A DNA stretch of 59,187 nt from NCBI GenBank assembly GCA_032718475.1, contig JAUCBJ010006530.1, positions 1 to 59,187 on the forward strand, read 5' to 3'. A model generated the notes under the pieces. It saw only the letters and a program-made list of their open reading frames with translations. It had not been told where the DNA came from and ran no database searches. The stretch comes from Nemertoderma westbladi (Eukaryota > Animalia > Xenacoelomorpha). Position numbers and translations under genes: made by a program. This document shows, piece after piece, positions 13,229 through 48,783 of the stretch. How positions within the stretch are numbered: the stretch's first letter is position 1; the number at the start of each line of letters is the position of its first letter.

Positions 13229-14080
13229 CTAAATCAAAATCTTCATTTCAACTCGAGAAGCCGGATTCCCTTCAGTAAAAGGAATCCAATAAGGTCCTTT
13301 CACCCACTCCCCACCATATTCTCCGTTCAAGTTACTGTTTGAGCAGCTCCTGTACCACCACGCACCAGTACTATATGTGGCGCAGTTGTTGCCAAACTCG
13401 TCATTATCGCGGTCCTTGGTAGAGAATGGGAGACCGTTTATATGCTCCAATGCGTCACCAGCAGTACCATGGTAACCGGATACATGTAGGGTGTAATTAG
13501 TTGCAGCTGATCCGATAGAGAAGTTCTTGTATTCCGCGTATTTGTGTTTGTTGTTGAACCACAAATCGACTCTCAACTTCACCCCGCCTTCACTCAGCTT
13601 GTGGATCTTCTCCAACCCCAACCAAATATTCGTCTCCGGGTCGCCAAATCCTTCAACATATTCATCCCAGTTACGATAGAAGTCAACTGATCCATCAACT
13701 CTTTGTTGAATCTTTACTCCATCATTATGCTTTAGGATAGGCGCTATCAGCTTATACAGTTTTAACCCTGTAAACTGGTCTTTCAACTCTGTAAACTGGT
13801 TTTTCAACTCTGTATTCTGTTCTTTCAACTCTGTATTCTGTTCTTTCAACTCTGTAAACTGGTCTTTCAAATCTCCAACCTTTTCTTTTAACTCTGTATT
13901 CTGTTCTTTCAAACCTCCAACCTTTTCTTTCAACTCTGTATTCTGTTCTTTCAACTCTGTATTCTGTTCTTTCAACTCTGTAAACTGGTCTTTCAACTCT
14001 GTATTCTGTTCTTTCAACTCTGTAAACTGTTCTTTTATCAGTTCTTCCAACGCAGCAACCTGTTCTTGTATTTGTTGACC
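13229..14080 (-). CDS. Fibrinogen-related protein (FReD; ficolin/tachylectin/angiopoietin-like), terminal exon: heptad coiled coil plus FBG domain
   Basis: IQQRVDGSVDFYRNWDEYVEGFG, WLGLEKIH, FSTKDRDND, NCA..STGAWWYRSCSNSNLNG; 13 heptads of E/DQ(N/F)TELK type; acceptor TTTTTTTAACAG ending at 14081 (phase 0); AATAAA at 13130-13125. Confidence 0.92.
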   Translation of the reverse strand, partial: GQQIQEQVAALEELIKEQFTELKEQNTELKDQFTELKEQNTELKEQNTELKEKVGGLKEQNTELKEKVGDLKDQFTELKEQNTELKEQNTELKNQFTELKDQFTGLKLYKLIAPILKHNDGVKIQQRVDGSVDFYRNWDEYVEGFGDPETNIWLGLEKIHKLSEGGVKLRVDLWFNNKHKYAEYKNFSIGSAATNYTLHVSGYHGTAGDALEHINGLPFSTKDRDNDEFGNNCATYSTGAWWYRSCSNSNLNGEYGGEWVKGPYWIPFTEGNPASRVEMKILI

Positions 14081-14899
14081 CTGTTAAAAAAAATTATTTT
14101 ATTTATATTTTATTTCATGTAAATCATAGGACATAAAAGCACACACTGTAAGTTACAGTATGTGTAATTGTCATCCTTCTCCAGGGGAAAATAACGCAAA
14201 TGATTACTCACAAAAAAAATAAAAGTGTAACCTTTCTATTGATTTTCGTTTATTGTTTTGGTTGGAATACCGTAACGTGCCACTTTAACCTGATCCTTTC
14301 TCTAAATTGGTAATTTAACATTAAACAATTTAACACAAAACATTAATTTCAAACGCTTAAGAACCTTTGAAGGGCCCTTTTAAACGTTTTTAACAATAAG
14401 TTATACACATATACAGTATATATATATAGGCCTACTGTAATACAATAAATTATTGTCAATATATTTTGCAGTTTCGCTATGTCTAATAGATATTTAAGAT
14501 ATTATCATATATAGACTCTCGTGTTGCGCGAAGGCCCACCACAACGTGTAATTAAAAGCCGAGGCCTTATATGTTCATTTCTCTCACACCGCTACTTCTA
14601 CGTAGTTCTGTCAGTTGTACCACTATACACGCATATACTGTATATTAGTGTATTACACACTAATGTTAGAACTGCAGATTAATTAAACAATATTATCAGC
14701 TGTCCAATCATGTACAGTGTCTACGGAGCCCCTAAATGGCAATTAAAAAAAATATCTAGAGCGCTCTCGATAATTCTTGATTTTATTGATTGGACTATTA
14801 CTACTAGGATCGGCATGCTGCATTACTGCTGCGTTATATATATATATTATAAATGCTGTGCCGGCTTGTCGACAAAATTGCACCGCCACAACTCCCTAC

Positions 14900-15512
14900 C
14901 ATACATGTCATTTGCTAGATCATCCTCATTTTCATGTAAGGTGTCCTTTAAGATGCGTCTTAAGAAAGACTGGACTGGGGGGAAGACTTAAGAAAGGGCT
15001 GTCCACCTTGCTTATTCACTCCATGAGGCCGCCAAATCACAAGATAATGCCCTGTTTGGTTCTCACCGCGAAAGCAATGTCCTGCAAAGCGGAGGTGTCT
15101 TTATTCTAGTGTCAAGCTTGGGGGAACCAATGAGACAGCTCCAATGTTATATAGTGTATGAACAGTGAACTCGGCGTAGCATTCTTGTGAAAGTGGCATC
15201 CAAAGATTTGGTTTCCTCAGCAGTTAGAGCCCAGCATGGACTCCCATAGAGGAGTACTGGAACTACTTCTGCTCTAAATATTCGGACATTAATTTTCCGA
15301 TAAATTCTCAGTGGCTTCCAAATCCTGGAAAGCCTATTCAAGGCTGCCCAATCCTTTCCCTTACGTTTTCGGAGGTCCCCACCTGAGTTCCGGATCCATG
15401 ATCTCAGGTAACAGAAGTCGTTCACATGCTCAAGCATACCATCCTTTGAGCTTACGCATAGGATTGATTTGGACTGATTTGGCCGGAAGTTCAAAATGCC
15501 TGATCTCATCAT
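14900..15512 (-). pseudogene. RTE-like LINE 3' fragment
   Basis: LEHVNDFCYL.S, NRLSRIWK, RIFRAEVVPVLLYGSPCWALT, FTRMLRR. Confidence 0.85.
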
Positions 15513-20765: not shown

Positions 20766-20968
20766 AAAGTATCGTGTGGTGAATGTTTTTGGTAGTAAGA
20801 TTGTTAGTAAGCCATTCATTCAAGGAGACACTTCATGCGTTAGTTAGCGCGGACTTTTGAGCGATTTCGCGCTTGTGTAAAAATAACTTTACATAATAAT
20901 ATATTAAATGTTGTACAGTGAGTGATGGTGAATTAAGAATGTTGTGTCCTCTACGGTAGGGACTACCC

Positions 20969-21506
20969 TGTTAGCTTATTCAATCCCGCTAACACCCCAT
21001 AAAGTTAAGCCGATAAGCAATATTGGGAGCCACGAGATTGGGTAATTAACCAACTCGTGCCATCCCAATAAGAATGGGAAGGAAACACACAACAAGGGTC
21101 AGGGGCCAAACCCCTAACCCGGAGAGAACAGGTGGAGTGAACGGGAACACTCCAAAGGGCGCCAACAAGGGTATCAACCAATCAGAGGGGGGAAAGGCAT
21201 CAATTAGGTAGAGTATCAAGGCCAACTGTGCAATATAGCCACTTGGCAGTAATCATATCAGTTCAGTTATCTCAGTGCAATATTAGTGCTAGTTTAGGTT
21301 AGATAGTTTAGCTAGGGAAGGACCGGGACTTTAGTTACCGTACCCCGCCTTCCGTGTACAACAACCTATATCTATATCTTTATACCGATCATTATATACA
21401 ACGAAGGACACAAACTCATTTACTCTTTTCCATTTACTCTTCACACACAGCGGGGACGCGTGAACTAACACCGGATAAACCGGGATCCCTCCTGGATCCC
21501 GTCACA
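20969..21506 (+). repeat. Element A 5' LTR
   Basis: TGTTAGC...CCCGTCACA; about 10 substitutions versus the 3' LTR by eye. Confidence 0.97.
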
Positions 21507-21602
21507 GTAACTAAATCGAGCTGCCGCCCTAGCTAAACTCAGTAATTAAGACCAACTGCCACCCTAGCTCAGCTAAACTCCACCAATCTAGAGGTAAAGA
21601 AG

Positions 21603-24600
21603 ATGAGTCGGTCAGGTGAGACGACACCGACGCGGACCCCGGACGAAGAACTAACGATCCGCGAGGCCGCAACCAGGCGGTACAGGCCCACAACGCCGGA
21701 CCCATCGGTAACGGGTCATCCGGCAGCTGAGGATGAGGGGGGCCGCCTGGAACCTGAGGTCGAGCCGAGAGGAGGAGAGAGCGAGACGGAGGGAGACGGA
21801 GACGAGTCGACACGAGACACGGACGTCGGTACCGATGTCGCGGGCCAGCCACAGGCCGAGGGCGACGGACGGCCCACCGAGACGGCGACGGTGGGGCCGA
21901 CGGTACGACGCCGGACCCGGAGAGACGACGGAGATGTCGATACCGATGTCGCCGGCCAGGCACAGGCCGAGGGCGACGGACGGCCCACCGGAACGGCGAC
22001 GGTGGGGCCGACGGTACGACGTCGAACCCGGAGAGACGGAGGAGAGGTCGGCGACGAGGACGTCGGGGTCTCCTGATCGACTTCGACGGGCCTACAACGC
22101 GACCCGGAGACTACTAGAGGAGGCCAGGAAGGGGAAAACGATAGACGAGGTAAAACTAAAGTCAGGACTAGGTAAGTCGGACAGACATTTATATTATCTA
22201 ATGCGCTTCGGGCAGAGAGAACTAGCCGAGGAGAGAGCAAAAGGGGTTGCCAGCGAACTGTTTGAACTATGGGAATGTGGGAGTATGGAACCTAGCGTAG
22301 CGTCAGTGTACATAGGGCCATACTTGGTCGATGCCCGGGGAGTAAAATTAGTGGGTTGGAGGGGACCTGAAGGGGGCGAATCCGAGGTTAACCCCGAGGA
22401 TTCGGCCTCGTCGGTCGGAGGAAGTTCCGGGAGGCGGGGGAAAGTTAGTAGGATCGGGAAGGCGGAGGGAATCCGTCGTAACCGATAAGTCTGCTACATC
22501 CTCCGTAAAAGAAAGACTGGTGAGAGAGATAGGTGCCGCGTGCCGTCTCGACCTGATAAAGCAAGGCCAGAGGGAAATGGATAAACAGCTAGAGGAGGGG
22601 AGAATGCGGCTAGAGAGGGAAGCGATATTGATTAGAGAAACCGGAGAGAGGGCTGAAAGGGCTTTGAGAGGCCTTAGGGAGTGTGATGAAATAGAGGAAA
22701 GGGAGTGTAGGGAGCGTGAGGCGAGAGAGGAAAAGGAACGCAAGGAGCGTGAGGCGAGACGGGAAAGTGAACGCAAGGAGCGTGAAGCGAGGCGAAGGGA
22801 GAGCGCTAGGAGAGTAGCAGAGTTGGCTGAGCGGGACGCGCGGGAGTGTGAGAGGAGAATGGTAGAAGCTGAGCGAGAGCATAAGGAATTAAAGAGACGC
22901 CAAAGTGAGCTAGCGGAACATAGGATTAGACGCACGCACGAGCTGCAACTGGTGCGGGCGGGGGCGTCTGAGAGCGAGACTGGCTCGAGTATTTTAGGGG
23001 AGCCAGGGGCCGTGGATACATTTATTAATACCCCACTTACAGGGACCGCACGACAGACCCAAAACTGGTGTGACCGTACGGGCGGGGGGGGGGGGGGGGG
23101 TAATAATGATAATGGTACAGTAGACGTGGTTAATATTAATAGTACCGTATGGGATAATTCTAATCAAACCTTTATTGCAGGAAATACTTTGCCTAGTGAT
23201 AGTAATTTAAATTTAAATCAGAACAATCCTAATATTAATGTAGAAAATAATTCTAATATTAATGTAGCTACACAAAATAATCCAAATAATCAAAATAATA
23301 ACCCAAATTCGAACCTACAAAATAATTTAAGTAACGCAATTACACAAAATAATCCAAATAATTTAAATAATGATCCGAGCCCGAATTTACAAAATAATTC
23401 AAATAGTGTAGTTGCGCAAAGTAATTCAAATGATTTTGTTTCGAACGAACAAATTGATTCCGTTTCCAATATGGGTGCTATTAACGTAAACACGTCGGGC
23501 GTGTATAGCCAGGCAGATGAGGGCCTGGTAGGCCAGATAGTTGGTAGGCAGGGAGCAGAGGGCCTGGTAGGCCACGTAGTTGGTAGGCAGGGAGTGGCTG
23601 GGTTGGGTAGACCCGGCGAGGGCCTGGTAGGCCACGTAGTTGGTAGACAGGGAGCAGAGGGCCTGGTAGGCCACGTAGTTGGTAGGCAGGGAGTGGCTGG
23701 GTTGAATAGACCCAGTGAGGGCCTGGTAGGCCACATAGTCGGTAGGCAGGGAGCAGAGGGCCTGGTAGGCCACGCAATAGCAGAGGGAGAGGCGGGGGTG
23801 AATGGACCCGACCGCGATAGGGTTGATGTGTCGACTAGAGAGGGATATAGTACCGTAGTGAGGGATAGCGAAGTTAGATGTGGCGAGTGGGGGGGGGGGG
23901 GGCTACAGGGGCCCCACAACAGCGAGTTAGCGGCGAAAGGGGGGGGGGGGGCAGAGAGTGTCCCACAGCCGTCAGCGGATAATGCGCGGGCCGAAACTAG
24001 GTAAACCGCAACACCCGGTGACGGAGAGCAATAGGGGGATTGCGAGTATCCCCAGCGGCGTGCGACCGAGCAGAGAGAGACAGGTTGACGTCGTGAGGAG
24101 GGCGGACGAAGCGTCGAGCCCGTTCAGAGGAGGGAAGAAGAATAGTGGGGTTTAACCGGGAGGTTGACGTGAGATCTCACGAGCGGGAATACTCCACTGA
24201 AAGGAGAAGAAGAGAAGACAGTAGTAGAGGTATCGCCGCGAACGATAGAAGAGCGAGGACGGATAGCAAGCCGTCGGTAGTCGAGATGAGAACGGAGAGT
24301 CAGTGGGGTCGGACTCCGGGAGATTGCCGTCGCCCCGGAGAGATGCGACCTGGCGGGGCGCACTACGCGCCGAGAGAGGGGTACGCGATGTACCGGTACG
24401 AAGATGAGGACAGTAGAGAGGGGGGTCGAAGAGAAACTTTCCGACGGAATACACCTACCGATCGAGACTACGGTAGCCGCGGGGAGGACTATTCGAGAAG
24501 AATAAACTTCGATCCCGAGCGATACATGCAGACTGTAGGACATACTGTAGGCCTTACTGCACATACCATAGGCCATACTGAGAGAGGCAATATAGGCGAT

Positions 24601-27600
24601 AGGATAGTGTGGACGACGGGATTAAACCCGGAAGTCGCGGAATACATACCGGCGAGTAGGCCAGAAGCTGATAGGCCTATACCGGTACCGGTACAGCAGT
24701 ATGACTACAGCATGCAGGGACATAACATATACCCTGGGGAGGGGGGAATTATTGCGGATAGGTGTATGGGCCCCAATATATTAACATCAACCCCAGTACC
24801 AAACATACCGGTGGGGGGGGGGGGGGGACAGGGTGACATTCCCCCATCACAATATCAACAATATACCCCGATAGGAGCAAGAACAACGAGACCCTTGGAT
24901 GAGAATAGGTCGTGTGATACAGAAATATGGAGGGGGCCGCTACCCCCGATGACATACCCAAGTCAGAGAAGGTCAAGAAATAGGACGGACGAACCGCACC
25001 AGACAGGAGAAACTATACAGCACCCATCGAATCCATTGGAAGCACAGGCGATGGGGATGGCCACGTTGATCGATGCGTTGAAAACGAGGATCGAGTTACC
25101 ACCCATGGAACCATTCAAATTCGATGGGAGCAGGCCGGAAGAATATCTACAGTTTCGGCGCATGTATAGTAACGAAATACTAACAAAGAACTTGACGCAG
25201 GCGGAGTGCCTTAAGTATCTGCAAGTATACACGGGAGGCCCAGCATACGATATTGTGAGGCAATATCAAGGAATAGAGGGCGGCTTCACGACAGCATGGC
25301 GGGCACTGGATAGGGAATACGGGTACCCGGCCAAGATCATCAGACAGACACTGAGAGGCATAACATCGGGTGGCCTGCAGGATAATCCCGTTAGCATTAA
25401 GACATTTGCTAACAAAGTTGAAAAGGCGCTAATCGTGCTGAAGACGCTAGACGCGCCATACGAGCTCAACGCGTCCAACAACATCACCACGATAGCGCAG
25501 GCACTACCGAACTGGCTGCGCAACAAGTGGAGGAAGATCGCCTTCTCCACTCGAGATAAGAAGGGTGCGGAACCGGGTTTAGAAGAAATGTCAAACTTCT
25601 TAAACTACGAGGCCGAACTAATAACTGACCCAGTCTATAGTGAAGATAGCCTGGGAAAGGGACCGAAGACAGACTACCATAGACCGAAACCAGAGCACAA
25701 TACATCAAACGCACTACCGAGACTCAGGCAATCATTGCCATATGCAGCAACGCAGGGGACTGCAAGTCCACAGCTAGCCGAGGATAAGACAACACCATGG
25801 AACGGACAGGGAAACAATAATAACACGAATAAACATAACCCCAGTACGTCCAGTAGGCTGAATCCATACAATAAGAATAGTAGGGACTTTGGTACAAACG
25901 CAACTGCGATACGCAATGCACTGTATAAAGAGGGCTACGACCCAAAGAGCAAATGCCAGCTACACGCAAATGCGCTTCATCAAACCATGAACTGCAGGTA
26001 CTGGCAGGCGCTACCTAGGCAAGAGCAGATAGATTATGCGTTCAGCAACAAAATCTGCTCGCGATGTGTAATGAGTGGACATAGAGCAAGGGAGTGCAAG
26101 GAGAAGCCAGTCAAGTTTGGTCAAAGGAGAGGCCAAACGATGGCGACGAGCACAGTAGGGGCGAAGAAGAGAGGAACGGTGCTACTTGGAGTAGTACCCG
26201 TACGAGTGATTGGGGAAGGCAATCGATCAGTAACAACACTAATGTTGGTTGAAAGTGGAGCTGCCTTCACACTAGTCGAGGAATGGGTGGCCGAAGAGAT
26301 AGGATTGAGAACGAGGCCAAGCAGAATGGCGGTAACAACCATCTCTAGCAAAGATGAGATCCTGGAGATGAGAACAGGACGGTGCGCAATTGCAGCAGTG
26401 GCACCGGGATGCGACTATGGGGCAACCATCGACCCCATCCAAGTGATAGAGTCAATTAATATCAATGCCAGGCGGCCAACTAACATCGAGGTCAAGCAGT
26501 AAAAATTCCTGGACGACATTGACTTCTCAATCCCAGACATGGACGTTAGGAAGGTGTCCATCATAGTAGGTATGGACTGCCCAACGGCCCACGAAAGAAT
26601 GCAAACGGTCTTCGGCGAAGACAAGCAGAGTGACCCGGTAGCCATATTAACACCATTCGGGTGGACGCTGAGTGGTCCAATCAAGAGCAAGATACCATTT
26701 AGGATGTCGGAGACATCAGGATGCATGTTCGCGGGAACAATACAGGAAATGGGTGACGAGGGAGCAGAGGAGCAGCTTAAAAGACTGCTCAGACAGGATT
26801 TCAAGGGACTGAAAGAAACCGGGGTCGGGACCTCGGTAGAAGACAAACAGGCTTTACAAAGCGTGGAGGAATCGATGACATGCGATGAGGGGCGGTATAC
26901 AATAGGAATGGTATGGAAACTACCGAAGATACCGCTGCCCGACAATAGAGGGATGGTACTCACGAGACTCCGCAAGCTGAAACAAACACTAAAACGGAGC
27001 CCCGAGAAGAATGAGTACATCCACAGAACGATTAAGAAGTACGTCGAGAAAGGATGGGCCGTGGAGTTACCGGTCGACGAGCCGAACACGGACAGGACAT
27101 ATTACCTGCCACTACACGTGGCTTTAGATCCAAAGAAAGGTAAACTACGGATGGTAGTCGACGCATCGGCAAAGACCGACAGAAAATGCTTAAACGACTA
27201 CCTGTTAGAAGGCCCAAACATATACAATACGGGCATAGAGGTGCTACTTAGATTTAGAAATGGGAAAGACGCCTTCACGTGTGACATAGAAGGCATGTTT
27301 AACCAAGTCCGTGTAACGAAAGAAGATAGCGACAGTCAACGCTTCTTATGGTATAACGGCGAGGAAGAACCGCCGATAATACCAGCATATAAGATGGTAG
27401 TACAAAACATGGGGGCCAAGTCGTCTTCATTTACGACGACTATGGCAGTGAGAGACACAGTAAAGGGGAAGGAAGATAGATACAGCAGTAGGGCCGTCGA
27501 TATGATTCAACGCGGCTTCTACGTAGATGACGGAATGGAGTCTGGAAATACGGTTAAGGAGATACTGGACACAGGGCGCGAGGTTCGCAACATCCTAAGA

Positions 27601-30138
27601 GGATCCGGCTTTAAACTGACCAAATACCAATCCAGTTCGGAAGAATTTATCAAGGCGATAGAAGACAAGAGACCAGAATCGACCATTGATAATCCCACAA
27701 CAGCCAAAGGGCAGGACATGGCGAACAAGAGAACAGAGTCTCAACAGAAGGCATTGGGAATCGTGTGGAATAGAGAGACAGACGAACTGAAGTATCAGCT
27801 GAGCCAAGAGGGCGCAGACACCCACACGAAGAGGGGCTATGTATCGTATATAGCAAGGATATACAATCCCCTAGGCCTAGCATCCCCATTATTAGTCACG
27901 GGAAAACAGATACTCAAGAGAGTATACAAATTGAAAGATGAGTGGGACGTAGAGGTACCAGAAGAAATCAAGAAACAGTGGAGTAAGTGGACAGGAGACT
28001 TGGAGAAGATGGGAACATACAACCTGCCTCGAGTGTATTTCCCGGATGGGAACATGATGAGTCTGGACCTACACATGTTCTCCGATGCGTCGTTGGAGGC
28101 GTACGGAGCGGCACTCTATTTAGTACAACGAGAGGGGGCTCATAAGCCCAGACTAGCCTTTAGCAAAGCAAAGTCAACGCCGCCAGATTCAGCATCAGTT
28201 CCCAAGTTAGAATTGACAGCTGCGAGACTAGGAGTTAGAGCCACAGCCTACCTAGTGGATACTATTACCAACATAGTGGAGACACACTACTGGACGGACT
28301 CCATGGTAGTGCTTGGTTTTCTACATAACGAAAGGACGAGATACCCGATATTCGTCGCAAATAGAGTGGACGAAATAAGGGCGACCACAGAACTGGAAAG
28401 GTGGTATTACTGCCCAACAGACGAGAAGCCAGCGGACTTGCTGTCGAGGGGCGTAGAACGCCACACTTTCTTGAAGAAGGAAGTATTGTGGCAGCATGGG
28501 CCACAATTTCTGAACGATAAGGAGGCCTGGCCGCCGATGAGAAAGGTGGATCCGGGCTCAGAAGTGGTATCAGAGGGAGAAGAGGGATATTCAGGGGGAG
28601 AAGAGATATACTCCCAGATGGTGAGGGATATTAGGGACGTGCAACCAAGACGAGAACTGTGCGATAACCCGACGGATAAACTCCTCAGCTACAGTTCTAG
28701 TTGGTATAAGACCAAGAAACTAGCGGCGTACTGGAGAGCCTTCGGGAATTTCCTCGCGGGAGTTGGCAAGGACAAGAAGATCAGGACAACCATAGATCTG
28801 GAAGGAGCGGCTAAGGCAATCATCCGCTATGAACAACGGAAGAACTATGGCGACGAGGTGGAACACGTCGGTAACCAACAGCACCTCCGACGGGACAGCG
28901 AGCTGATTACGCTGTCGCCACATCTCAATGACGACGTGATTCTAGTAATGAATTCTAGGGTGGGACACTACAACAGCATAGTCGTACCACCGAAACCCAT
29001 CATCATTCCCACAGGATCGCCAATAGTCCACCAGATTATCTGGGACTCCCACAAATCGATATTGCATGGGGGCACCAACCGAACCCTCACAGAGATAAGG
29101 AGGACCTATTGGGTCAAACAATTGAGGAAGAAGGTAAAAGCGGTAGTGGGGCAGTGCCAGACCTGCCGACGAGCGAAGAAGGAGCGAGCCGTACAGGAGA
29201 TGGCGCCACTACCGGCGAGTAGGGTAAGACAACACAACCCGCCATTTACGCATTGCGGTGTGGACATGTTCGGGCCGATAAAGATCAAAGTGATGCGACA
29301 CACGGAGAAACGCTACGGCATCATCTTCGAATGCAACAACACAAGGGAACTGGGGATAGAACTCGCCCAAGATGCAACTGCATCAGCATTCATTAATGCC
29401 TTAGAAAGGTTTAGAGACCGCAAAGGTGGGACGATTGCAGTGATATACAGCGACAACGGCACCAACTTTGTGGGCGCAGAGAGTGAGATGGCAGAGGCCT
29501 TGGACATCTTGGAGGGAGAAGAAGTCAGGGCGGCCATGAGACGACGACAAGTAAAGTGGGAGAGAAGGACGCCGTATGCACCACATACACTAGGATGCGT
29601 CGAGAGACTGGTAGGCAGTTCAAAGCGTCTAATGACGAAGCTGATGAACACCCACATGGTCACTGAAGACGTCTTACGGACAGTACTTGCGAAGTGCAAG
29701 GGGATCATTAATAGCAGACCGCTATATCCGGAGAATGATGACCCTGAGTCATTAGACGTGCTGACGCCTAGCCATTTCCTGATGGAAAGGCCAGCGACCA
29801 TCGATATGCGGGGTGTAGACCCAGATGACATACACTCCCGCCAAAGTTGGAAAGAGTATTGGAGGAGGTGGGTCGAGGAATACCTACCCACACTCCATAA
29901 AAGGAGTAAGTGGAGGAAGCCAAATAGGGAGTTAAGAGAAGGAGATCTCGTAATCGTTACGGATGATACTATCATCAACAACCAGTGGCGGTTGGCGAGA
30001 GTCGTAGGCACTTATTCCGACGAGGACGGAAGAGTCTGATCGGTAGAAGTGCGGATAGGTGGTAAGATAGGTGCGAAGGACAGAAAAACCTACAGGAGAG
30101 CTGTGGGAAAATGCTGTCTGCTAGAAGGAGCACCTTAG
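21603..30138 (+). pseudogene. Element A gag-pol polyprotein (few frameshifts and premature stops)
   Basis: Gag core PFKFDGSRPEEYLQF; knuckles CQLH..H..C and CSRCVMSGHRAREC; PR site VESGA; RT YYLPLH, CDIEGMF, FYVDD; RH FSDAS, PKLEL, WTDS, PAD; IN H..H..CQTC, GVDMFGP, SDNGTNF, ERLV. ORFs 24145 and 26539 share a frame across TAA 26500; reading through TGA 30037 reaches TAG 30138. Confidence 0.95.
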
Positions 30139-30289
30139 TGGAGTTAAAGAAGGGTTTAGTCATCCAAGTTTTGGACTGAGGGGGGTGGGATTGAGGGCGA
30201 GACGCCCTTCCCACACAAAAATAGAAAATAAAAATAAAAATAATGAGTAAGTACATAGTAGGTACGCAGTTAGTAGGCAGAGTTAGTTA

Positions 30290-30860
30290 GAGGGTACGTA
30301 GTACTGCTAGTTAGTTAGTTAGTTAGTTAGTTAGGAGGTACGTAGTACCGCTAGTCAGTTAGAGAGTTAGTTAGAGGGTACGTAGTACCGCTAGTTAGTT
30401 AGAGAGTTAGAGGGTACGTAGTACCGCTAGTCAGTTAGAGAGTTAGTTAGAGGGTACGTAGTACCGCTAGTCAGTTAGAGAGTTAGTTAGAGGGTACGTA
30501 GTACCGCTAGTCAGTTAGAGAGTTAGTTAGAGGGTACGTAGTACCGCTAGTTAGTTAGAGAGTTAGAGGGTACGTAGTACCGTTAGTTAGAAGAGAGTTA
30601 GAGGGTACGTAGTACCGTTAGCTAGAGAAGAGTTAGAGTTAGAGGGTACGTAGTACCGTTAGTTAGAGGATAGTTAGAGGGTACGTAGTACCGTTAGCAA
30701 GAGAAGAGTTAGAGTTAGAGGGTACGTAGTACCGTTAGTTAGTTAGAGAGTTAGAGGGTACGTAGTACCGTTAGTTAGAGGAGAGTTAGAGGGTACGTAG
30801 TACCGTTAGTTAGTTAGTTAGAATTAGAGTTAGAGGGTACGTAGTACCGTTAGTTAGAAG
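30290..30860 (+). repeat. Minisatellite in element A between pol and the accessory ORF: 15 copies of AGGGTACGTAGTACCG(C/T)TAG with variable TTAG/AGAG spacers
   Basis: Counted directly; period ~36-45 bp. Confidence 0.95.
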
Positions 30861-31341
30861 AGGGAGAGTAAGAGGTAAAAGGGGTATGTAAGATATAGAT
30901 ATTAGTTAGCAGTTAGTAGGGAGAGGGGGGCATATGAGTACAGCTGGGTAAATCGTGTGGCCACACGACGCATACTGCTGTACTGCATAGGCCCACAGAG
31001 TAGGCCAGAATGTGGATTAGAGAATAGAATAATCCATAGGTAATAGTAAGTAGTAGGACAGTAGAATTAAAATAGATAAATAAATAGAATAGGGCTGAAA
31101 GTTACAAATAATGGCAACACAAGGGAAGTTATTCTAGAACATAATAAAAGTAACGGACAGAAATTGTAAATTATGCTCATTTACTAGCTTCAAAATTAAT
31201 TAGTTATAATTTAGGTTAAAAGGCGCAGTTAAGTAGAAAATAGGCCATTATCGGACCGTACAGAACATCCTAGATACATCACTCATCTGTATTGCGCCTT
31301 GGTAAGGCACCACCTTGCAGGTGAGCAAGTGAGTGTTCGGA

Positions 31342-33888
31342 ATGGCAAGCAAGTTGATCAGGTAGAGAAAGGCGGAGTCAGGAGGAAAGGAGATACTGGT
31401 GGATTTCACCGAGAGGCATCCGGAAGAGAAGACGAGAGGGTACTACCAGAGGTTGGAAAGGGGTCACGCGGCACGAGCGCTGCAGGATCACTTCCAGGAG
31501 ATGCACGAACAGCGGCTGGTCGGGACCTACGGGACGCCGTCGCTGGAAAACGCGATCTTCCAACACTTCCACTACGTGGTAAAAGGGGACGAGGCGAAGT
31601 TCGGGATTCCGAAGTACCCGAGGGAATCACCGAGGAAGGACTGGAAGAGATTCATAGAGTCCGTCAACAGAGGAGGATATATGATCCTAGATGACGAGGG
31701 AACCGTGGAAGACGAGGCGGGTTCGAGACGAGGATCAGCGGGGTCGGCCAGGACCATACTCCTACATTTGGCCGCGCCAAATGGGGACATCTTCTTATTC
31801 GATCTAGGAACGTATGGGAAGAAGGACGGGCCGAAATTAAACCGGTTACCGAAAGCGGTACAAGTCTTGGTAAGAGAGAAGTCGACGACGAAAGTGGGAT
31901 TGGTGATTCGCGAGGATGCAGAGAGAATCATCGGTCCGGACGCCACCAACCTCCTGGACATGCAGAAGGTCTTTATGGCTATGACGGCACCGGATGGGTT
32001 GGGGGTAGTCGAAAACACAGGCCAATGCGGGGCGGTGGCGATGGGCCAACTCTTGGGGCTCATGTGCCACAAACCGATGGACTGGGGAAAGTTCAGGGAA
32101 GAATACGGAGCGGAATTAGCGAACTCGCTAAAGTGGGGAGCAAGACCGGGAAAGCAAGAGGTATATCAATTCCGCAGAGGAGCGATAAAGGTATATCAGA
32201 AGCGATATATCCTACATGAAGATTGGATGATGATAAGTTTGCTTAACTTATTTATGACCGTGGTTATCGAGAGGGAACCAGGGGCATTTCTGTTATCGGG
32301 ATCACCCTTAAGCTACAGGAGAGCCTTTAAGACGGCCTTTGACGGTCTGGTAGACCACCCGGGGCTGAAGGGTGAGTCGGTGTACTACAACAGCCGGCAT
32401 CTGGTAGACGGGGAGACAGATACGCCGTATCAGAGATGGGAGCAGCTAGAAACGGATAGACGAGAAGCAAAGTGACTGGAAGAAGTCGCCAGACGGGAGA
32501 GGATAGAAGCAGAGGAGAGGGAAGAGGAGGCCAGGACGCAGAGTTACGGTTTCGAGGAACAGGCAGGCTTAGACAAACTTCATTGGACTTCATCAGGGAG
32601 TTCAGGGGAGTCTCTAGGACGAGAATTGGGATGAACGGTGGGATCGCCGAAACAGTCGACGTCGGGGTTGCAAGCGATGCCCATACCAGCGGGCGCCGAG
32701 GGCGACCAACCGCCAAGGAAGTTAAGGGAGCTGGAGGGATGGAGAGCTACGGGCGAGAGCCAAGGCGGGAAAGGACATAGTGGATCCATCGGGATACCGG
32801 GGTTGGAGCCACTGCCAGAGATGGAGGAGGACGACGACAAGTTCGGAGAGATGCCGCCCATCGAGAGGATAGGCCACTCGGACACGGACTGGGTTGGCGG
32901 GAGGGTGGTGATGGCCAGTGGGGCGAGGGCCTTCTGGAACAGATCCGGCAAGCGGACCTGGGTGCACGAGGAGCCGGCGATGGATTTCGCGGGGAGCACT
33001 ATCAGGTTGGGCGAGCAACCGGGGACGGCACCATGGATAGTATTCGGGGAGACGATGCCCGAGAGGGGCGGGGAGATCGACGTAGATAGAGACACTAACG
33101 TGGAGAAATTCGCCTACCAGCGACTCCACAGACCTCGGAGATCGCTTGGGACGAAAGACGAGGTGGGACGGGAGACATTGGTACTCGGCTGCGACTACTG
33201 TGGGAGACAGACCCACCAGGAAAGGAGCTGCTTGTACTGGTTCCAGAAGGGAACCTTTTGTCTCTACTGCCGAGAGCCAAGCCACAGGATGGGGGCGTGT
33301 CCACGGTTGCATAACCGATGTCCAAAGTGCCACTTTCGGGGACACTACGGACGCCAGTGCAACTGGATGGACGACGAGGAGAAGTTCGCAAGATTCGAGG
33401 AGTGGGCCGATGTCGGGGCCATGACGCGCCAGCGCATGAAGGCCCAGGAGTTCAAGTGGGGTTTCTTCCTTATCAATCAGGAGACTCACATGGAAATCAT
33501 AAAGCGGAGGCTACCGTTTACCTATCAAGAGGTAGCAACGGCGGCGTCGTACGCCGGAGTGATGAACACACAAAGATATTTGGACAGGTGGACGCCACAG
33601 AACCGAAGGGAGTTTATGGATTTCTTGGCGGAGCACGTACCACAAGCAATGAAGATGATCCTATGGGACGCCACCAGAGGGAGACAACCGGGCCACTCTG
33701 AGGGGCCACCGGCGAAGCAATATCGGGCACTAATAACACCAGCTCCCAAGGAGCCAACAACTGGAATCAGCAGGGAGGTGGTGGCAAAGGTCCGAAAGCA
33801 GAAAGCGGATCCCAGAGGAGCGGTGGTAACCAAGAAACGACCCAGGGAAGAGGACGTCAGGGGGAACTATCCCCAGAGGAACAGATAG
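31342..33888 (+). pseudogene. Element A accessory ORF: DEDDy-type (RNase D/WRN/EXD-like) 3'-5' exonuclease + charged linker + three CCHC zinc knuckles
   Basis: One frame from ATG 31342 with in-frame stops at 31363, 32473 and 32632. Motifs ILDDEG, LLHLAAPNGDIFLFDL, LP..V..LV....TKVG..IREDA, LLDMQ, WGARP, Q..YILHED; knuckles CDYCGRQTHQERSC, CLYCREPSHRMGAC, CPKCHFRGHYGRQC. Confidence 0.8.
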
Positions 33889-34546
33889 GTTCCCAGAATC
33901 GAGGGAGAGAGACTGGGATTTGGACGTGGTACGCCTGGAAGGCGCCGCGTGAGACGTACAAACTATTAAGTACAAATCTAATTAATGCAAGTAATCATAT
34001 AAGTGCAATTCGTATGTACATACGTAGTAATTAGTGATCTACAAATATACGTTCGGAGTAAGTACTATAGTGATACAACCTTTCTCAATTAGCTACTGGG
34101 ACTGGGGGGTAAACTGACTATGACACTATGGACGAGACACCAGACAATTTCACACTTCTTGAGTGCGACGGCACAAGAGGGGGGGGGGGGGAGATTCGTC
34201 AGAAGGGATGAGGTAGACAAAGTGGGGTTGAGGGACGTGCGGAGAGAGTGCGGATGCAATTCTAGTGTGGGGGGGGAGAATAAGAGGCTGAGTGAGGGGC
34301 GAGGAGGTCCAAGTGTATGAGAGAGTTAGGGTGAGAGTGAAGAAGAGATAGGGCGAAAGTGTTGGGGAAACAAAGGTCGTGTGAGAGGTGAGCGCGATCG
34401 GCCCGACATGGGACGCCAGGCACACAGGGTAGCGTTATCATACCCATAGGGAGCGGCCTGGAAAGCCGGCTCCGAGAGAAAAGAATTCCACCCCACACCC
34501 GATACTAGATCGGGATCCAGCGGGATTGTAGCGCACTTTTTGGTTG

Positions 34547-34584
34547 ATGCTATCTTCTTACCGGGAAGATAGCATGGGGGGGAG
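34547..34584 (+). promoter_or_regulatory. Element A polypurine tract (34576-34584) preceded by an 11-bp stem hairpin
   Basis: ATGCTATCTTC-TTACCGG-GAAGATAGCAT followed by GGGGGGGAG abutting the 3' LTR. Confidence 0.8.
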
Positions 34585-35122
34585 TGTTAGCTTATTCAAT
34601 CCCGCTAACACCCCATAAAGTTAAGCCGATAAGCAATATTGGGAGCCACGAGATTGGGTAATTAACCAACTCGTGCCATCCCAATAAGAATGGGAAGGAA
34701 ACACACAACAAGGGTCAGGGGCCAAACCCCTAACCCGGAGAGAACAGGTGGAGTGAATGGGAACATTCCAAAGGGCGCCAACAAGGGTATCAACCAATCA
34801 GAGGGGGGAAAGGCATCGATTAGGTAGAGTATCAAGGCCAACCGTGCAATATAGCCACTTGGCAGTAATCATATCAGTTCAGTTATCTCAGTGCAATATT
34901 ATTGCTAGTTTAGGTTAGATAGTTTAGCTAGGGAAGGACCGGGACTTTAGTTACCGTATCCCGCCTTCCGTGTACAACAACCTATATCTATATCTTTATA
35001 CCGATCATTATATACAACGAAGGACACAAACTCATTTACTCTTTTCCATTTACTCTTCACACATGGCGGGGAAGCATGAACTAACACCGGATAAACCGGG
35101 ATCCCTCCTGGATCCCGTCACA
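34585..35122 (+). repeat. Element A 3' LTR
   Basis: 538-bp direct repeat of 20969-21506. Confidence 0.97.
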
Positions 35123-35127
35123 TACCC

Positions 35128-35792: not shown

Positions 35793-37290
35793 GATCTCCG
35801 GGTGTTCAACTATAGGAATCTTGTAAGTTGTCTCCTTCCGGGTCGGTATACTAATAGGAAAGCTAGTTGGTCTCGCAACCGGTACTATCGCTCCAGCAGA
35901 ATGGGGTTGAGGTTCTCGCGTCATCTCGACATGAGGTATCTGTAGTCTCTGCGACAAACCCTGAGCAAAGGTGATACTATCGAAGAGCTCGGGTGTCATC
36001 TCCTTAGGTTCGGTTTCATCGTGGGATATCCAATAGAATGGTAGGCTCGCGAGCCTTCCGCCGAACTCCTAGATCTCGCCTTTCTCGTACGCCTTGTACG
36101 CCCTGTAGAGGCTCAAAGCTTCCCGTTTCTCTTGCGTCGACTTATTAGACTCGTCCACTACCATGCTGTAGACGTCTGGTTTGACTAATTTGGGTTCGTA
36201 AATAACGATCTCACCCGCGTTCAGTCCACTCATCTTAAACGAATGGTACGGATTCGTCAAAGGGTATCCGCCTTCTTGGTAACGTAGACTTTGGTGGTAT
36301 GAGCATCGCGCTAATATCAGCTCGGGTAAGGGTTCGTTTACCATCAAATATTGCAGCGTATGATATAATCGGCGTATCTCTGTGTCTGGATCCTTGCAAA
36401 TGTCACTAGCATCGCATAACGCATCGTAAGGATATAACGCATTGAACTCCGCGCGTAATTCCTCCGTTCTTTTGTTATAAGCATCCAATCGCTGTTTAGT
36501 CACATTCGGGTCCGCCTTGGATTTAGAGAGCTTGGCTGTACTTCTAGCCATACTCTCCACTCCAAACACACTAAAGTTTTTAGCTCCATAACGATTAAAC
36601 AGCGCCTGGTGCTCTTGTTCCTGCGTAAACCCCTGACGTAACTCCTTATACATCTTCTCCGCCATCATATACGTGTATATATGGTTACATATCGTTACGT
36701 TTCTACTAGATAAAGCACAAAATAGAGCTTAGATGTGAGGTGACTTAGAGTTTGTCGGCTTTTGGCTCAACTTTGCTCTAAAACCCCAACCCATTTGCCT
36801 AATGACTTCGGGTTCGCGTGATTTCGCACTGGCTCCTAATCCAAAAAATTGTGCCAATAAAAAACGAATTCCGGGTAAACTAGCCGCGAGTCTAAAATAC
36901 TCACCTTTTAATTTCCCAAACTACATTCCCAAAGAAATAATGCAGTCGAGAATTAATTCGGTCTAAATAATAGTAGACACGACTACGTAGAACAAGGCCG
37001 ATTTTCTTTTCTAAAAAAAATTTTTTTTTTCAGTAAGCTCGCAAGCCTTCCATCCGCTCTTTTCCTCCCCAATTTTACATTTTATCTAGCTGTATTCTAG
37101 AATTTGCATTCACTGGAGAATCATTTTTCTTAAATTTAAATCCAACTAAATGGATTTGTCTAATAATTTTTGAAAATTGTCTCACTTGAGGGTTCCAAGT
37201 GGAATTCCATTCCTACTGTACACACAATCCTGCTCCTATGTGATACATAAGGGTACTACCCTCCATGTTCACATATAAAACAATGGAATT
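35793..37290 (-). pseudogene. Element B accessory ORF (decayed), function uncertain, weak DEDDy-exonuclease-like motifs
   Basis: 36920-35793 is one frame with single stops at 36731 and 36071, joining the 199-aa and 121-aa ORFs. An upstream piece at ~37290-37075 lies in another frame. Confidence 0.5.
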
Positions 37291-37407: not shown

Positions 37408-40400
37408 CTATTTACTGATATTGGCTGGAGATTTGTAGTCTCCTATCTCGTTTCTAGTCTCCTCAAGGAGTACGAGACGTTGTACAGGCCTATCCACGGT
37501 ACGTCCGTCGATAGTCCGTACAGTAACTGTCCTTACTACACCAGATGTAGGGTGCGTGGTCAAAATGACTCCAGTCAGCCAAAACCGTCTTTTCAGATTG
37601 GCTTCAGCCAATAAAACGTGGTCTCCTCGTCTCAAACATCGGGTATTAAGATACCAAGAGGTTATGGTTGAAATAGAGGGCAAATAATACTTCTGCCATA
37701 TTTCCCAGAATTTATTTGCAAGCAATTGAGTGATTTTCCAAGCCTTGTTGCCGTATCCGTCGCTATTAACGAGTACCGAAATGGGCAACAATGTCGTCGG
37801 CGCCTGTATGAGCAGGTGCGCTGGTGTCAAGGCAAACTGTGCGTCGTTATCGTCTGGGATCAAAGCGATCGGTCTAGTGTTCAAAATCGCTTCAATTTCT
37901 ATTAGTAACGTCTTCAGTTGGTCGTCTGTCAAGATGTGATGCGGCTTTATTACTTTAGCCATAGCTGTTTTAATTGAGCCAATCAGCCTTTCCCAAACGC
38001 CACCTCTCCACGGACTGTCTGGAGTATTAAAATTCCAAACAATTCGGTGAGGACGTAGTTCCTCGGAAATCTGATTTTGGTCCAACTTCCTTAAAGCTCT
38101 GGTTATTTCGTTCCGTGCACCCACAACGTTTGTCCCTTGGTCACAATAAATGGATTTCACCGATCCACGTCTAGCGATAAATTGCCGTAAGGCTAGGATA
38201 AAGGCATTGGTGGTTAAATCTGTTACATGCTCTATATGGACAGCTCTGCTGGCCATGCAAGTGAAGATCAATCCCCAACGTTTTACCTGTACCCTTCTGC
38301 GATTCGCCATTACGGGTCCAAAACAGTCTATCCCCGTCTCAGTGAAAGGGGGTCTAAATGCCTGTAATCTTGCAAGTGGTAGTTCACTCATTTCTTGGTG
38401 TCCTATCCTCGCGTGCACCTTCTTACAAATCATACAGTTCCGTGTTACCGAACTAAGTGCCTTGCGAGGCCAAATCAGTACAAACCTCAATCGTAAATGT
38501 GATAGATAGTGATTTCTACCCACGTGTTTGTGTTGTACATGTGCGTCCAGTATCATAGCGCGCTGTAACTCATGGTGTTGCGGTATTATGATAGGATACC
38601 TAAAGTCAATTGCAAAGTCGATGTTTTGGAGTCTGGACTTGTGGCAAAGTAAGCCCCTATAAATAATCGGACTCTAACTCAAAATCGGTAAAGACTTGAT
38701 CTGTTTACCTTGGTTGATCGCTGTGAATTCTCGTGCGAAGTATCGCAATTGATAATGTCTAATGATATCAATTTCACAATGACCAACTTCCTTTAAGGTA
38801 AGTCTTCTAGGAAAGTCGCGTTTGCCTCTGGCATATTGTTTCAAACGTTTGAGCCATGCTAACTTGCGGCACGCGTCAGTCCATGATCTAGTTAGGTTTA
38901 CTATCCGGTCAACGTTAGTTACGTTAGTGACGTCATCAGGAAAGGTATAGTCATAGTGTGGATACTTGTCTGGACTTGGTAGGTCCACGGGCCTTCCGGT
39001 AGGTTTATCTGAGTCTCCAAGTATGTCAATCTCCACGGTCTTACCTTTACCGTCCGCTCCTAATGAGTCGACTGGCAGTAACGGTTTCAACTCTACAGTA
39101 CCAGTGTGTTCCTGTGAGCCTGTAAGCTTCCTAATCTTAGTTACACGTTTACCTGTAGGTGGTAAGTCAATTATTTTCTTTGAGCGGAGTGTGATCGCTG
39201 TGGCCACACCTTTATCGTCCAAAGAAGTCAAATTCGGTAAGTTTCTAAATGTCTGCTCCAATGGGTCTTCTACTGGAGTGTCTAGTAGACAGTCTGGTGA
39301 AGCGTCCAGTGAACAGTCTGGTGAGACGTCTGGTGAGACATAGCGCGGAACTTCCAGCAAAATGTCCTGTCGTCGGTCCCAAAGAAAGTCTGGCGTAACT
39401 TCTGTCAGAAAGTCTGGTCTAAAGTCTGGTGGACAGTCTGACGAGATGTCTGGTGGAAAGTCTGGTGAGACGTCCGGTAGACAATCTGTCGAGAGTTCCA
39501 TAAAACAATCTGGCGAACAATCCGGAGAACAATCTGGTGTGCTTCTGGTGAATAATCTAGCGAGTAATCTGGTGAACAATCCGGCAAAACGTCTGGTGAA
39601 ATCTCCCGCGGAACATCCGGTGAAGGATTTGTACGAGCGTCTGGTCAAGATTCTGGTGAGACGTCTGGCGTAATGTCAGGTCTAGCGTCTAGGTCATCAG
39701 ATTTCGTCCGTCCTTGTTTCCTCTTGACCTTGGCGTTGGCTTTCGCTTTAGATTTGACAACCTTGTCGATTTTTATCTCGGCACCCTCTGGTATGGTATT
39801 GGTTGTCGCGTCAAATAATGGTGGCCATTCGTCTGATGGTCGCTGTAGGAAATCGGGTCCTCTAAACCAAAAGGATTTATTGTCCGGTTTACAAAAGTCG
39901 AGCGGTAACATCACCCGTGAGGGCTGGGTTCAGCTTCCCTGGACAGTGACGCCAATCGTGTTTGAGCGACCGGTCTAATATTTCAGCCCGTCTGTTGGCT
40001 ACGAAAGTCTTGAACTCAAATGCTTCGTTGTTTATGTACCAAAGTACCAACGTCGCATCCGTCCAATATGTGACCTTCAAGTTAGCCTCCAGCTCGCATT
40101 GAACTAGACTGACAATATCGGTGGATATCGTCCCGGCTTGCAGCTCTCCACGAGGTATAGTCATATACTTCAACGGCGTTGTTCTAGCCCTAGAAGTAAC
40201 GAGAGACACATCGTAGCTGTCCGATGTCACTTGTCATCTAATGTATAAAGTAACCCCCAATCCTTGCTAGCGTCACTAAAGCTGTGAAGCTCTAAATCGG
40301 CAGGAAAGGTGGTCTGCAAAGGAAAGTATATCCTCGGTATGGTATAGTCTTGTAGGAACGTCAGTTGGGCTTCCCAGTCCCTCCATTGCTCAGCTGACTT

Positions 40401-46136: not shown

Positions 46137-47149
46137 TCATGTCTTATTATATACGTCAAGTACGGGTAATAAAATGTCAAAGTATCGGAATGTTGAAATG
46201 TCAAACTTACCTTGGTATATATATATATAGCATATATATACCCTAACCGGTACAAATAAATCAACAAAGTCAGAATGTCGAAATGTCAAAATGTCCAAAT
46301 GTCAAACTTACCTTGATATATATATATATCATATATATACCCTAACCGATACAAATAAAACTAACAGAGTATATAATAAAATATGTAATAATCTAGCCTA
46401 CCAGCTAAATTTGTACGAATAAGTGAGATAATGGTATATGTTACCAAAATGTAGATCAACAAGTACAAATGATAGGCAAAACAGCAACGTCTAACAAGAA
46501 AAATAAGTACCAACAACACTACTAATTAGACAGTGAAACCCAGAAATTTTGAGTACTACTGTGCTTTCTAAGTTTGAACGACACGAGTCGTAAAACTACG
46601 CTCCTTTGATCTTCCAGTCGTGCAAATTCCCAAATACAAACTGGACGTGGGTCGTTCCGTTTTTCGGCGGCGCGGACAAATATTTTGTCTCCCAACCTTT
46701 GCGAAAAGCGGTCTAATCCTCGAAGCAGTACAGAAATGAGTCCTTGAGTCCTAAAAAGTCGAAGGTGAGAGTTTTACTTCTACTCTACGAAAAATCTTCC
46801 TAGGTACCGATACAACTTGGTCTTTAAACCCTATGTACCTTTTCAAATACCAAAAAGTAACACCGCACACACACGGTGTAAAACAAAATGCTACAAACTA
46901 ACTATTAGCTAGTCAAATATTAAATACGAAACTACTAGCTACCCTAAAGCCTACTGAAGCAGGGGACGATCTACAAATTACTAATTTTACTAACCTTAAA
47001 TTTTTTAAATATCTCCTACTTACAATAGCTAACAATATTTACATATATCTTACTTTAGGTAAGATATATCTACCATTTGCAAATCACAATTTGCAAACTA
47101 AACAATAAATATACCTCACTGTTGTGAGGTAAACAAACATATATCTCAC

Positions 47150-48783
47150 TGTTGTGTCCTCTACGGTAGGGACTACCTTACAGCCTACAAATCTACTAAT
47201 ACAAAGCTATAGAATATCTCTAAGCGTAAAGTCCAGTAGTATACCGCTTACCAGATCCTAGTAACGATGTATCTTACTGTAAGACTCTAGTAATGAAACG
47301 GGCTAGTACAGTATCTGACAACAAATCCCAGTCCAGGATATCTAAACAAACAGATACAATACACAAATTACTACTGGCGAGGAGCAGAGCCTGGTGTCAA
47401 ATCTATGTACGTGAGCGGGTCTAATGCCTACAAACTAGACAAAAGGATACCTGTCCTCTAACCGGTATGGCAGATGTACAGTTACAGTAACAGACCAAAC
47501 TCACGGGAAAACAATCCCCGCGCAGCGAATCCTAACTATCGCTGAAAGTCCGAAATACTGTAACTTGCCGCAGTGTGATTTATATGGTTTATATACGAGC
47601 TAGGTGGGTTACAGACCTAGCGTAACAATACTGATCTCCCTGTCTGAATCCTTCTAAAAAGGGTCGTGCCCAATATAACAATGCTGCTGCTCTAGGCAAA
47701 CAACAGTTAATAACGAAAATGAAACACTCCCTTGCCGTAACTAAATATCTGATCCTAATTTTACAAATACGAATGGTAAGTTATAGATATACTCTGCCTA
47801 AAGTGATCTAAAGTGCGCTATCTAGTAGAACTCTAAGGGTAAATATGTTTTAGGGCGTGTGTGTGTGTGTGTTACAATAAAACAATTTTGGTGTATATCA
47901 TTTACTAGGTTTTAGTAATTCTCTGACCAAAACAATACCGTGCGCTAGCTACTAAAATATGCTAGTCGCGCTTTGTAGAACTTTATACTTACAAATGACG
48001 TCAAAGCTCTCTCCTTCCTATCCACAACTCAACTGGGCAACCACGGTGTTAGTAACTACACCCGTGATCGGCACAAATACCAGATTCTGGTTGTAAGATA
48101 AGAAATAGGGATTAATTGCTACCGTACGTTAGCTGATCTGGTATACAAATTTGATTCTAGAACTTTGTTGCTGCGGTAGTTAACAGCAAATACCTATCAG
48201 TACGTGGCAAGGCGCGGTAGGATATTAATAAAACCTCCCTAGGCCAAGCGGTGTGCCGGTAGCAGAAATGCTCCTTGCCTGATCAAATAACTAACTTCAG
48301 GCAGGGGGGGGGGGGGGGTACTAATGTATGTTCTACAAAGCAAACCGGTACCAAACAGTCAGTACTGCAAATCACTAAATTATGGAATGTATGCTGTCTG
48401 TACCTAATATGTACTCGTGTACCGACGGACGGCAATAGCTCGCACCTATGAGGTATACAGGTAACCTAGGGATTCGTAATACTGACAAGGGGGTTCTGCC
48501 TAGAACATAGTTATTTGATCCTAAAATTTGCGGCGTCCCAGGACGGCGTCACGCTTACCCTGATCTATAGGTCTTACGTCGGGCAAGGGCGTCAAACAAA
48601 GTCTTACCTTCCTCATAAAGCGGGCGCTGCATGGTAAGTGGAGTATTTCAAAGGGCGAAGGGGGTGCGCGGTCTAATCTAATGTGGGCGCTAGCGTGTTG
48701 TGGACATCTTTTCCCTGCGTTGCTGATGGCCTAACGGTCTAGGCGGCCATCTTCCTGATGCTTGGCTGTCCCAAAGTTGGACA
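47150..48783 (-). repeat. Element B 5' LTR (outer end approximate)
   Basis: Begins TGTTGTGTCCTCTACGGTAGGGACTACC as at 20940; homologous to the left copy up to 48456. Confidence 0.8.

Follow-up and report, generated by a model that had tools for sequence, protein, structure and literature searches.

Introduction

Exonucleases of the DEDDy type are already known as the third open reading frame (ORF3) of LTR elements. Rodriguez et al. (2017; PMC5408684) described them in bdelloid rotifers, where the carriers are the LTR elements Juno and Vesta as well as Athena/Terminon elements. The roles proposed there were 3'-end processing or silencing. No clear within-genome selection was found for the env and GDSL ORF3s that were sequenced, and the report left open whether the DEDDy ORF3s are active or useful (PMC5408684). 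Passages in reviews repeat the finding (PMC6431247, PMC5718144, PMC6338049), and the last of these, in the section drawn on here, treats the DnaQ-like domain as a well-known accessory domain of LTR elements. DEDDy domains are also carried by Dada DNA transposons, according to the relevant part of PMC3706591. Nor is it new to find a DEDDy exonuclease and CCHC fingers in one protein; this is the architecture of trypanosome RNase D.

Here, a predicted DEDDy exonuclease and CCHC knuckles occur together in a BEL/Pao retrotransposon of Nemertoderma westbladi. The window, by which we mean the whole stretch of DNA analysed, comprises 59,187 nucleotides of the forward strand (assembly GCA_032718475.1, contig JAUCBJ010006530.1).

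The carrier element

The element at 20969-35122 is a complete, full-length LTR retrotransposon of 14.15 kb, bounded by paired LTRs and by a 5-bp target-site duplication, TACCC, on both flanks (Table 1). Its domain order is gag-PR-RT-RH-IN, and DUF1759, Peptidase_A17 and DUF5641 all exceed the Pfam cut-offs; a Pfam search of 22352-24001, in the N-terminal gag-like region, returned no match. The DUF1759 gag, the protease-like region, the reverse transcriptase, the Pao Peptidase_A17, the integrase and DUF5641 thus identify the carrier as a BEL/Pao LTR retrotransposon, as a preliminary description of the locus had proposed.

The studied copy is decayed, since in-frame stops at 26500 and 30037 fall within conserved pol sequence, the latter breaking the C-terminal motif of pol. 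No TGG-type primer-binding site is found in the 39 nt that follow the 5' LTR (21507-21545).

Table 1. Features of the studied BEL/Pao element and of its third open reading frame (window coordinates)
Feature	Position	Strand	Remark
Left TACCC target-site duplication	20964-20968		targeted sequence: 3' LTR of another BEL/Pao element
5' LTR	20969-21506	+	538 bp, TG...CA; 98.1% identical to 3' LTR
N-terminal gag-like region	21546-24004	+	several frames, low complexity and coiled-coil
gag and aspartic-protease-like region	24097-26502	+	DUF1759, E 1e-10; in-frame stop at end
pol	26503-30138	+	RT, Pao Peptidase_A17 (E 1e-38), integrase H2C2/rve, DUF5641
40-bp tandem array	30279-30857	+	about 15 copies, between pol and ORF3
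Candidate splice acceptor	31310-31320	+	21 nt before ATG 31342; overlaps donor-like GTGAG
Extra ORF (ORF3), env position	31342-33888	+	848 codons, 3 stops
Predicted exonuclease domain, unbroken stretch	31549-32374	+	residues ~70-345
Predicted helix, then long low-confidence linker	32375-33189	+	holds both TGA stops
Three CX2CX4HX4C knuckles and conserved extension	33190-33465	+	knuckles 33190-33360; extension FE..A..G..T..R...GF
Polypurine-tract-like purine-rich stretch	34572-34583	+	directly before 3' LTR
3' LTR	34585-35122	+	538 bp, TG...CA; followed by TACCC at 35123-35127

A third open reading frame in the position of env

The preliminary description had placed an extra gene where env would lie, and ORF3 is indeed inside the element, as a separate ORF downstream of pol and ahead of the 3' LTR. 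Its single frame opens with the ATG at 31342, closes with the stop codon at 33886-33888 and is interrupted just three times, by a TAG at 31363 and by TGAs at 32473 and 32632. The two pieces that had been reported as 358 and 416 aa do share one frame; measured from stop to stop they have 369 and 417 aa, the cuts being slightly different. All of the exonuclease motifs that had been pointed out (ILDDEG, LLHLAAPNGDIFLFDL, KVGLVIRED, WGARP and QKRYILHED) are present in frame, and the acceptor-like CCACCTTGCAG, ending at 31320, is present in the letters. The ORF has no intron, and its base composition is that of the element.

The possibility that ORF3 is itself an env was considered and rejected: it has no transmembrane-grade hydrophobic stretch (the maximum 19-residue hydropathy is 1.32, in the Exo III helix), and the viral fold matches of its model are exonucleases and polymerases.

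The predicted exonuclease domain

Searches with the window protein by itself were silent. It had no match in Pfam, NCBIfam or PHROGs, none among PDB sequences and none in word-index protein searches, and a fold model from the single sequence (pLDDT 31) was unusable.

Profiles built from its relatives were more informative. Combined with 28 relatives, the window protein yields a profile that matches EXD2 (E 1.2e-10), trypanosome RNase D, Egalitarian and the WRN exonuclease; this profile also matches the knuckles of Lin28, AIR2 and nucleocapsid. When the window protein is left out, the profile of the 28 relatives scores its exonuclease piece at 89.6 bits, against 5.9 for the best shuffle (222 of 300 shuffles gave a score). 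That profile gives, in the window frame, a single domain match (31468-33642; iE 7e-70) that spans the two TGAs. One relative falls just under the cut-off of Pfam DNA_pol_A_exo1 (E 6e-5).

An AlphaFold2 model was then built from the alignment of the window protein and the 28 relatives. Its mean pLDDT is 60, with core strands at ~80-92. In VIA-align its top match is the Nibbler EXO domain (Z 13.9, rmsd 3.2-4.0, 200-207 residues aligned), and WRN, TbRND, RNase D, Rrp6 and Egalitarian superpose on it at Z 11.6-12.8; DnaQ-like exonucleases fill the rows to about rank 46. The top Foldseek matches are Egalitarian, Nibbler, trypanosome RNase D, EXD2 and Rrp6. Profile and model together support a predicted DEDDy/DnaQ (RNase H-like) 3'-5' exonuclease fold for the N-terminal domain of ORF3. 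Of the checks named in the preliminary description, Pfam is silent on the read-through protein, and the predicted structure superposes on Nibbler.

The predicted fold does not tell an RNA substrate from a DNA substrate, because WRN, Pol I-type proofreading domains and diDNases all lie within about one Z unit of Nibbler.

The catalytic columns of the window protein hold D117, E119, D192, Y289 and E293 (D-E-D-Y-E). The last acidic position is thus a glutamate where the Exo III motif YxxxD has aspartate; the relatives (n=28) have aspartate there in 13 cases and glutamate in 8. All five columns are spanned by 24 relatives, of which 14 have acidic residues at all four acidic positions and 10 have lost at least one. 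That four acidic residues are kept across lineages less than 25% identical suggests selection for catalysis in those lineages.

The knuckles and the relatives

The C-terminal part holds three exact CX2CX4HX4C knuckles, which start at residues 617, 640 and 660, as had been read from the sequence. Pfam zf-CCHC does not match the window protein; the Cys and His columns are nevertheless kept in 26-28 of 28 relatives. Within the protein family, conservation is highest in the knuckle block and its FE..A..G..T..R...GF extension; the relatives are 28-41% identical to the window protein in the knuckle block and 9-23% in the exonuclease. In the relatives, the linker between exonuclease and knuckles varies from 157 to 501 aa.

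These relatives come from a phmmer search of 1.84 billion representatives with the X-containing read-through protein, which gave 72 matches at E <=0.001 (33 of at least 450 aa, 39 shorter). For 71 of the 72, the best stretch falls within the knuckle block or beside it. When the N-terminal domain was made into an iterated profile, the first round matched 27 of the 33 long relatives and the last round had matched 30; these counts leave out two added cluster members and, in later rounds, include self-matches. Proteins found mostly through their knuckles thus have the N-terminal domain as well, in one uninterrupted frame, and at least 27 of the 33 join exonuclease and knuckles in this way. None of the 30 relatives looked up has an informative name. 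With at least 27 remote proteins of one architecture, this unannotated exonuclease-triple-knuckle family appears to be new.

The family is not uniform. One short cluster (P0007, P0097, P0098) is knuckle-only in all three of its members, in P0006 the knuckle block is duplicated and the exonuclease degenerate, and P0054/P0085 and P0042 have long N-terminal extensions ahead of the exonuclease. No donor or nearest relative is claimed from the exonuclease tree, since 14 of its 25 inner branches are open and its branches are long. Single-protein scans of viral, metagenome and genome contigs, made with P0002 and P0004 from the window and with the relatives P0017, P0036, P0038, P0042, P0069 and P0070, found no genomic context for the relatives. 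In 11 of the 30 relative clusters a member lies on a contig of 9-11.5 kb, a faint hint of element-sized contigs.

The loss of acidic residues in 10 of 24 relatives leads to a third reading, beyond the two in the preliminary description: a non-catalytic RNA binder. Here, the conserved job would be that of an adaptor resembling Egalitarian or EXD1, which binds, shields or transports the RNA of the element or sequesters small RNAs, with catalysis optional. Its best argument is that fold and knuckles were kept where catalytic residues were not. The stronger conservation of the knuckle block points the same way, as do the structures at the top of the Foldseek list, in which Egalitarian is bound to mRNA and I-factor localisation signals. 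Against it, the studied copy and 14 of the 24 relatives keep the four acidic residues over great divergence. We consider such an adaptor rather improbable, but a serious rival.

The family in the host species

Five sequencing runs of one organism, from three studies, contain part of the stretch; none contains half of the sampled words. No RNA run is among those listed, which has no bearing on expression. In all four runs examined, contigs cover 30 of 30 bins of the element, ORF3 included, and no single contig spans the whole element. Records that run on into unlike sequence make up 0-1% in runs X1-X3 and 20% in X5. A 1.35-kb part of ORF3 is covered by 2,674 and 1,567 contigs in two studies, at identities from below 90% to above 99%. 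The ORF3 cargo is a feature of the family.

This bears directly on the idea that ORF3 is a one-off captured fragment of a host gene, with no function for the element. The silence of Pfam, NCBIfam and PHROGs would fit such a fragment. It is, however, hard to reconcile with thousands of diverged contigs over ORF3 in three studies, with an intronless frame of element-like composition and third-position bias, or with an architecture common to dozens of remote unannotated proteins. Contig coverage and shared architecture largely refute the idea, which we hold to be extremely improbable.

The summed contig depth over ORF3 is 0.7-0.93 of that over pol in X1-X3, runs that were found with ORF3 itself; since contig depth cannot rank genes either, we give this ratio no weight.

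Variant sites show signs of purifying selection. In ORF3, 16 of 18 listed variant sites are at third codon positions, against 6 of 16 in pol and 7 of 13 among the sites private to the studied copy. The nominal p of 2e-6 overstates this bias, since the rows are the best-supported 40 of 1,844, are clustered on few contigs and are partly linked rather than independent. Purifying selection on ORF3 in a high-copy family is, judged from these sites, likely.

The studied copy has its own history as well. Over 1,351 bp, 13 sites are listed at which it disagrees with 85% or more of the family depth, a rate of 0.96%, or about half the divergence between the LTRs. One of the 13 is the stop at 31363, which is thus decay private to this copy. 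The codon that had been guessed to underlie it was wrong; nearly all of the depth in two runs has a letter there that is neither that of this copy nor the guessed one.

The TGAs at 32473 and 32632 are also covered, yet neither is among the 13 sites, so some of the family may have them too. Recurrent CpG decay was considered as the reason and rejected, since six CpG-type private sites are seen at >=99%.

These two stops matter, of course, for what the family encodes. It might be that the cargo is split or decaying in the studied family. The exonuclease would then end at 32475, and the knuckles would be either a separate ORF (from the ATG at 32677) or passive in a defective, trans-mobilised lineage. 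The unlisted TGAs and the knuckle-only cluster among the relatives argue for this, and DNA runs contain, at low depth, deletion joints (33356-33932 and 33161-33912) that mark family copies without the 3' part of ORF3. However, the private-site list is incomplete. Of six sites in its range that another comparison put at >=85%, it missed three (all in one cluster, 32214-32220), and it would pass over any site with two alternative letters as well. Similar stops break the conserved pol of this copy, and the rates (3/848 codons in ORF3, 3/2013 in gag-pol) do not differ significantly (p 0.37). The profile of the relatives and a predicted helix both extend across the first TGA, and no RNA structure for programmed read-through is supported after 32473 (z 0.12). 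A split or decaying cargo is, on this evidence, rather doubtful.

The fusion of exonuclease and knuckles, as first described, is seen as one open frame in distant relatives (27 of 33); for the ORF3 family itself we infer it, the TGAs not being among the private sites listed. That the fusion is ancestral is very probable. That the active family makes one exonuclease-knuckle polypeptide, the stops being decay of the studied copy, seems somewhat probable.

Surroundings of the element

A second BEL/Pao element, in the opposite orientation, received the studied element 28 bp inside its 3' LTR. This second element (20940-20968 and 35123-~48456, minus strand) is more decayed, with Peptidase_A17 (E 8e-24) and DUF5641 (E 1e-17). 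The studied element splits its 3' LTR; its other LTR, from 47150, includes ~600 bp (47557-48167) that are missing from the split copy. No TGG-type primer-binding site lies right after its 5' LTR (47100-47149), and the internal regions of both elements start with GT. Between RH and IN, a 12-bp tandem repeat encodes PD-rich tetrapeptides (38674-39675, minus strand). After pol, the second element has an extra ORF of its own, of 219 codons (36069-36728, minus strand), which has no significant match in Pfam, NCBIfam, PHROGs or the exonuclease-knuckle profile. This is a different, unknown cargo.

Elsewhere in the window, an intronless 284-codon frame (13229-14083, minus strand) joins a 21-bp tandem repeat, encoding coiled-coil heptads, to Fibrinogen_C (E 8e-43), and would be a FReD/ficolin-like host gene or retrocopy. 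Its Fibrinogen_C domain fits an animal host. Three long inverted-repeat pairs, 76-95% complementary (6415-11270, 8328-15303, 49702-52446), are likely DNA transposon or MITE ends. LINE-like fragments were seen by eye at ~8550-10000 and ~15150-15500, with one weak DUF6451 match.

Proposed function

The second BEL/Pao element of the window has no exonuclease-knuckle gene, and such a gene is thus dispensable for BEL/Pao elements in general. A dispensable gene, in turn, speaks for an accessory role directed at the host rather than for a core step of replication. This is why we commit, at modest odds, to the trimming or degradation of host silencing RNAs. The product of ORF3 would be an accessory RNA-trimming enzyme acting against these RNAs through its predicted DEDDy fold and three CCHC knuckles, a tentative reading to which we give nearly an even chance.

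The steps of such a mechanism differ in how readily they can be believed. Expression from a spliced subgenomic RNA, by way of the acceptor at 31320, is suggested by position and by the acceptor-like site, and is reasonably probable; candidate donors lie near 21614 and 22170, and spliced subgenomic RNAs are typical for ORF3s (PMC5408684). By analogy with trypanosome RNase D, the knuckles would, with good probability, hold single-stranded RNA and pass its 3' end to an active site with two metal ions. In the trypanosome enzyme the zinc-finger domain raises RNA binding and cleavage, according to the relevant part of PMC7797062. The substrate may be host piRNA or siRNA or their precursors, which would make the protein a counter-silencing factor; set against other targets, this choice has somewhat less than an even chance.

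An RNA exonuclease or chaperone might instead serve the element's own replication, by trimming the 3' end of genomic RNA, a tRNA-derived primer or cDNA ends in the particle. The ORF3 knuckles do resemble those of nucleocapsid, the TGG-type primer-binding site is missing after the 5' LTR, 3'-end processing is one of the roles suggested for the DEDDy ORF3s of rotifers (PMC5408684), and the part of PMC3706591 that concerns Dada transposons proposes that their DEDDy domains process DNA ends. However, the neighbouring BEL/Pao element manages without the gene and, from its flank, without a TGG-type site too. Even env is rare in BEL/Pao, as described in the part of PMC3118150 drawn on, so the step would not be essential. 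We judge a role in replication rather unlikely, but a serious rival.

A bolder form of the host-facing reading is that an old, widespread family, with active and dead versions, is an anti-piRNA weapon of BEL/Pao elements, a Nibbler mimic that destroys or sequesters silencing RNAs. This has a low probability in our view. If true, a transposon-borne mimic of Nibbler would serve animal BEL/Pao elements. To our knowledge, few suppressors of small-RNA silencing are encoded by animal transposons.

The preliminary interpretation stands for the carrier, the fold, the knuckles, the env position, the family-wide occurrence and the signs of selection; its ideas about silencing and processing had already been published in 2017 (PMC5408684). 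ORF3 extends DEDDy cargo to BEL/Pao, with signs of purifying selection in a high-copy family. Since at least 27 remote proteins have one architecture and include natural variants that look active or inactive, whether such DEDDy ORF3s are active or useful is now testable by ordinary biochemistry and small-RNA sequencing.

Comparison with known systems

The element resembles BEL/Pao (Belpaoviridae) in its TG...CA LTRs, 5-bp target-site duplication, DUF1759 gag, PR-RT-RH-IN order, Peptidase_A17 and DUF5641. It differs in length, 14.15 kb against a usual 4.2-10 kb, and in cargo; few BEL/Pao elements have env, and this one has an exonuclease-knuckle ORF instead (both comparisons with the part of PMC3118150 consulted). 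The word "exonuclease" is absent from the main text, as drawn on here, of two BEL/Pao surveys (PMC3118150, PMC8556966). Among the full-text matches listed, there is no report of a BEL/Pao exonuclease, nor of an exonuclease-knuckle ORF3; such an ORF may be catalogued in Repbase, Dfam, GyDB or subscription papers, which lie beyond that coverage.

The rotifer ORF3s of Juno, Vesta and Athena are alike in being RNase D-like and DEDDy, in forming a separate ORF after pol and in taking the env position; activity is unproven there too. The elements covered there are Juno, Vesta, TelKA and Mag, with no mention of a BEL/Pao case (PMC5408684), whereas the carrier here is BEL/Pao. Their motif is reported as DEED (PMC5408684) and that of ORF3 is D-E-D-E, a comparison by description only. 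No knuckles are described for them (PMC5408684); ORF3 has three.

The animal DEDDy family (Nibbler/Mut-7, EXD2, WRN exo, Egalitarian, EXD1) shares the Exo I-II-III order with ORF3, EXD2 being the best profile match and Nibbler the best fold match. Identity to the ORF3 exonuclease is 12-20%. We know of no triple-knuckle tail in any of these proteins.

A parallel in architecture is RNase D of Trypanosoma brucei (TbRND; PDB 7c42/7c45), in which, as the part of PMC7797062 drawn on describes it, a single chain has a DEDDy domain and, after it, tandem CCHC fingers. It superposes on the ORF3 model at Z 12.4 (rmsd 3.7, 199 residues aligned), and the profile matches both of its parts, the exonuclease weakly (8.1 bits). 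TbRND is, by the same passages, a cellular kinetoplastid enzyme that trims gRNA, with four fingers and a linker of ~28 aa (PMC7797062). The ORF3 family, in contrast, has three knuckles with a conserved extension and a linker of 157-501 aa, and ORF3 lies in a retrotransposon. What appears new here is that the carrier is a BEL/Pao element, that the predicted exonuclease has a knuckle tail, and that the protein belongs to an unannotated family with both active-looking and dead-looking members.
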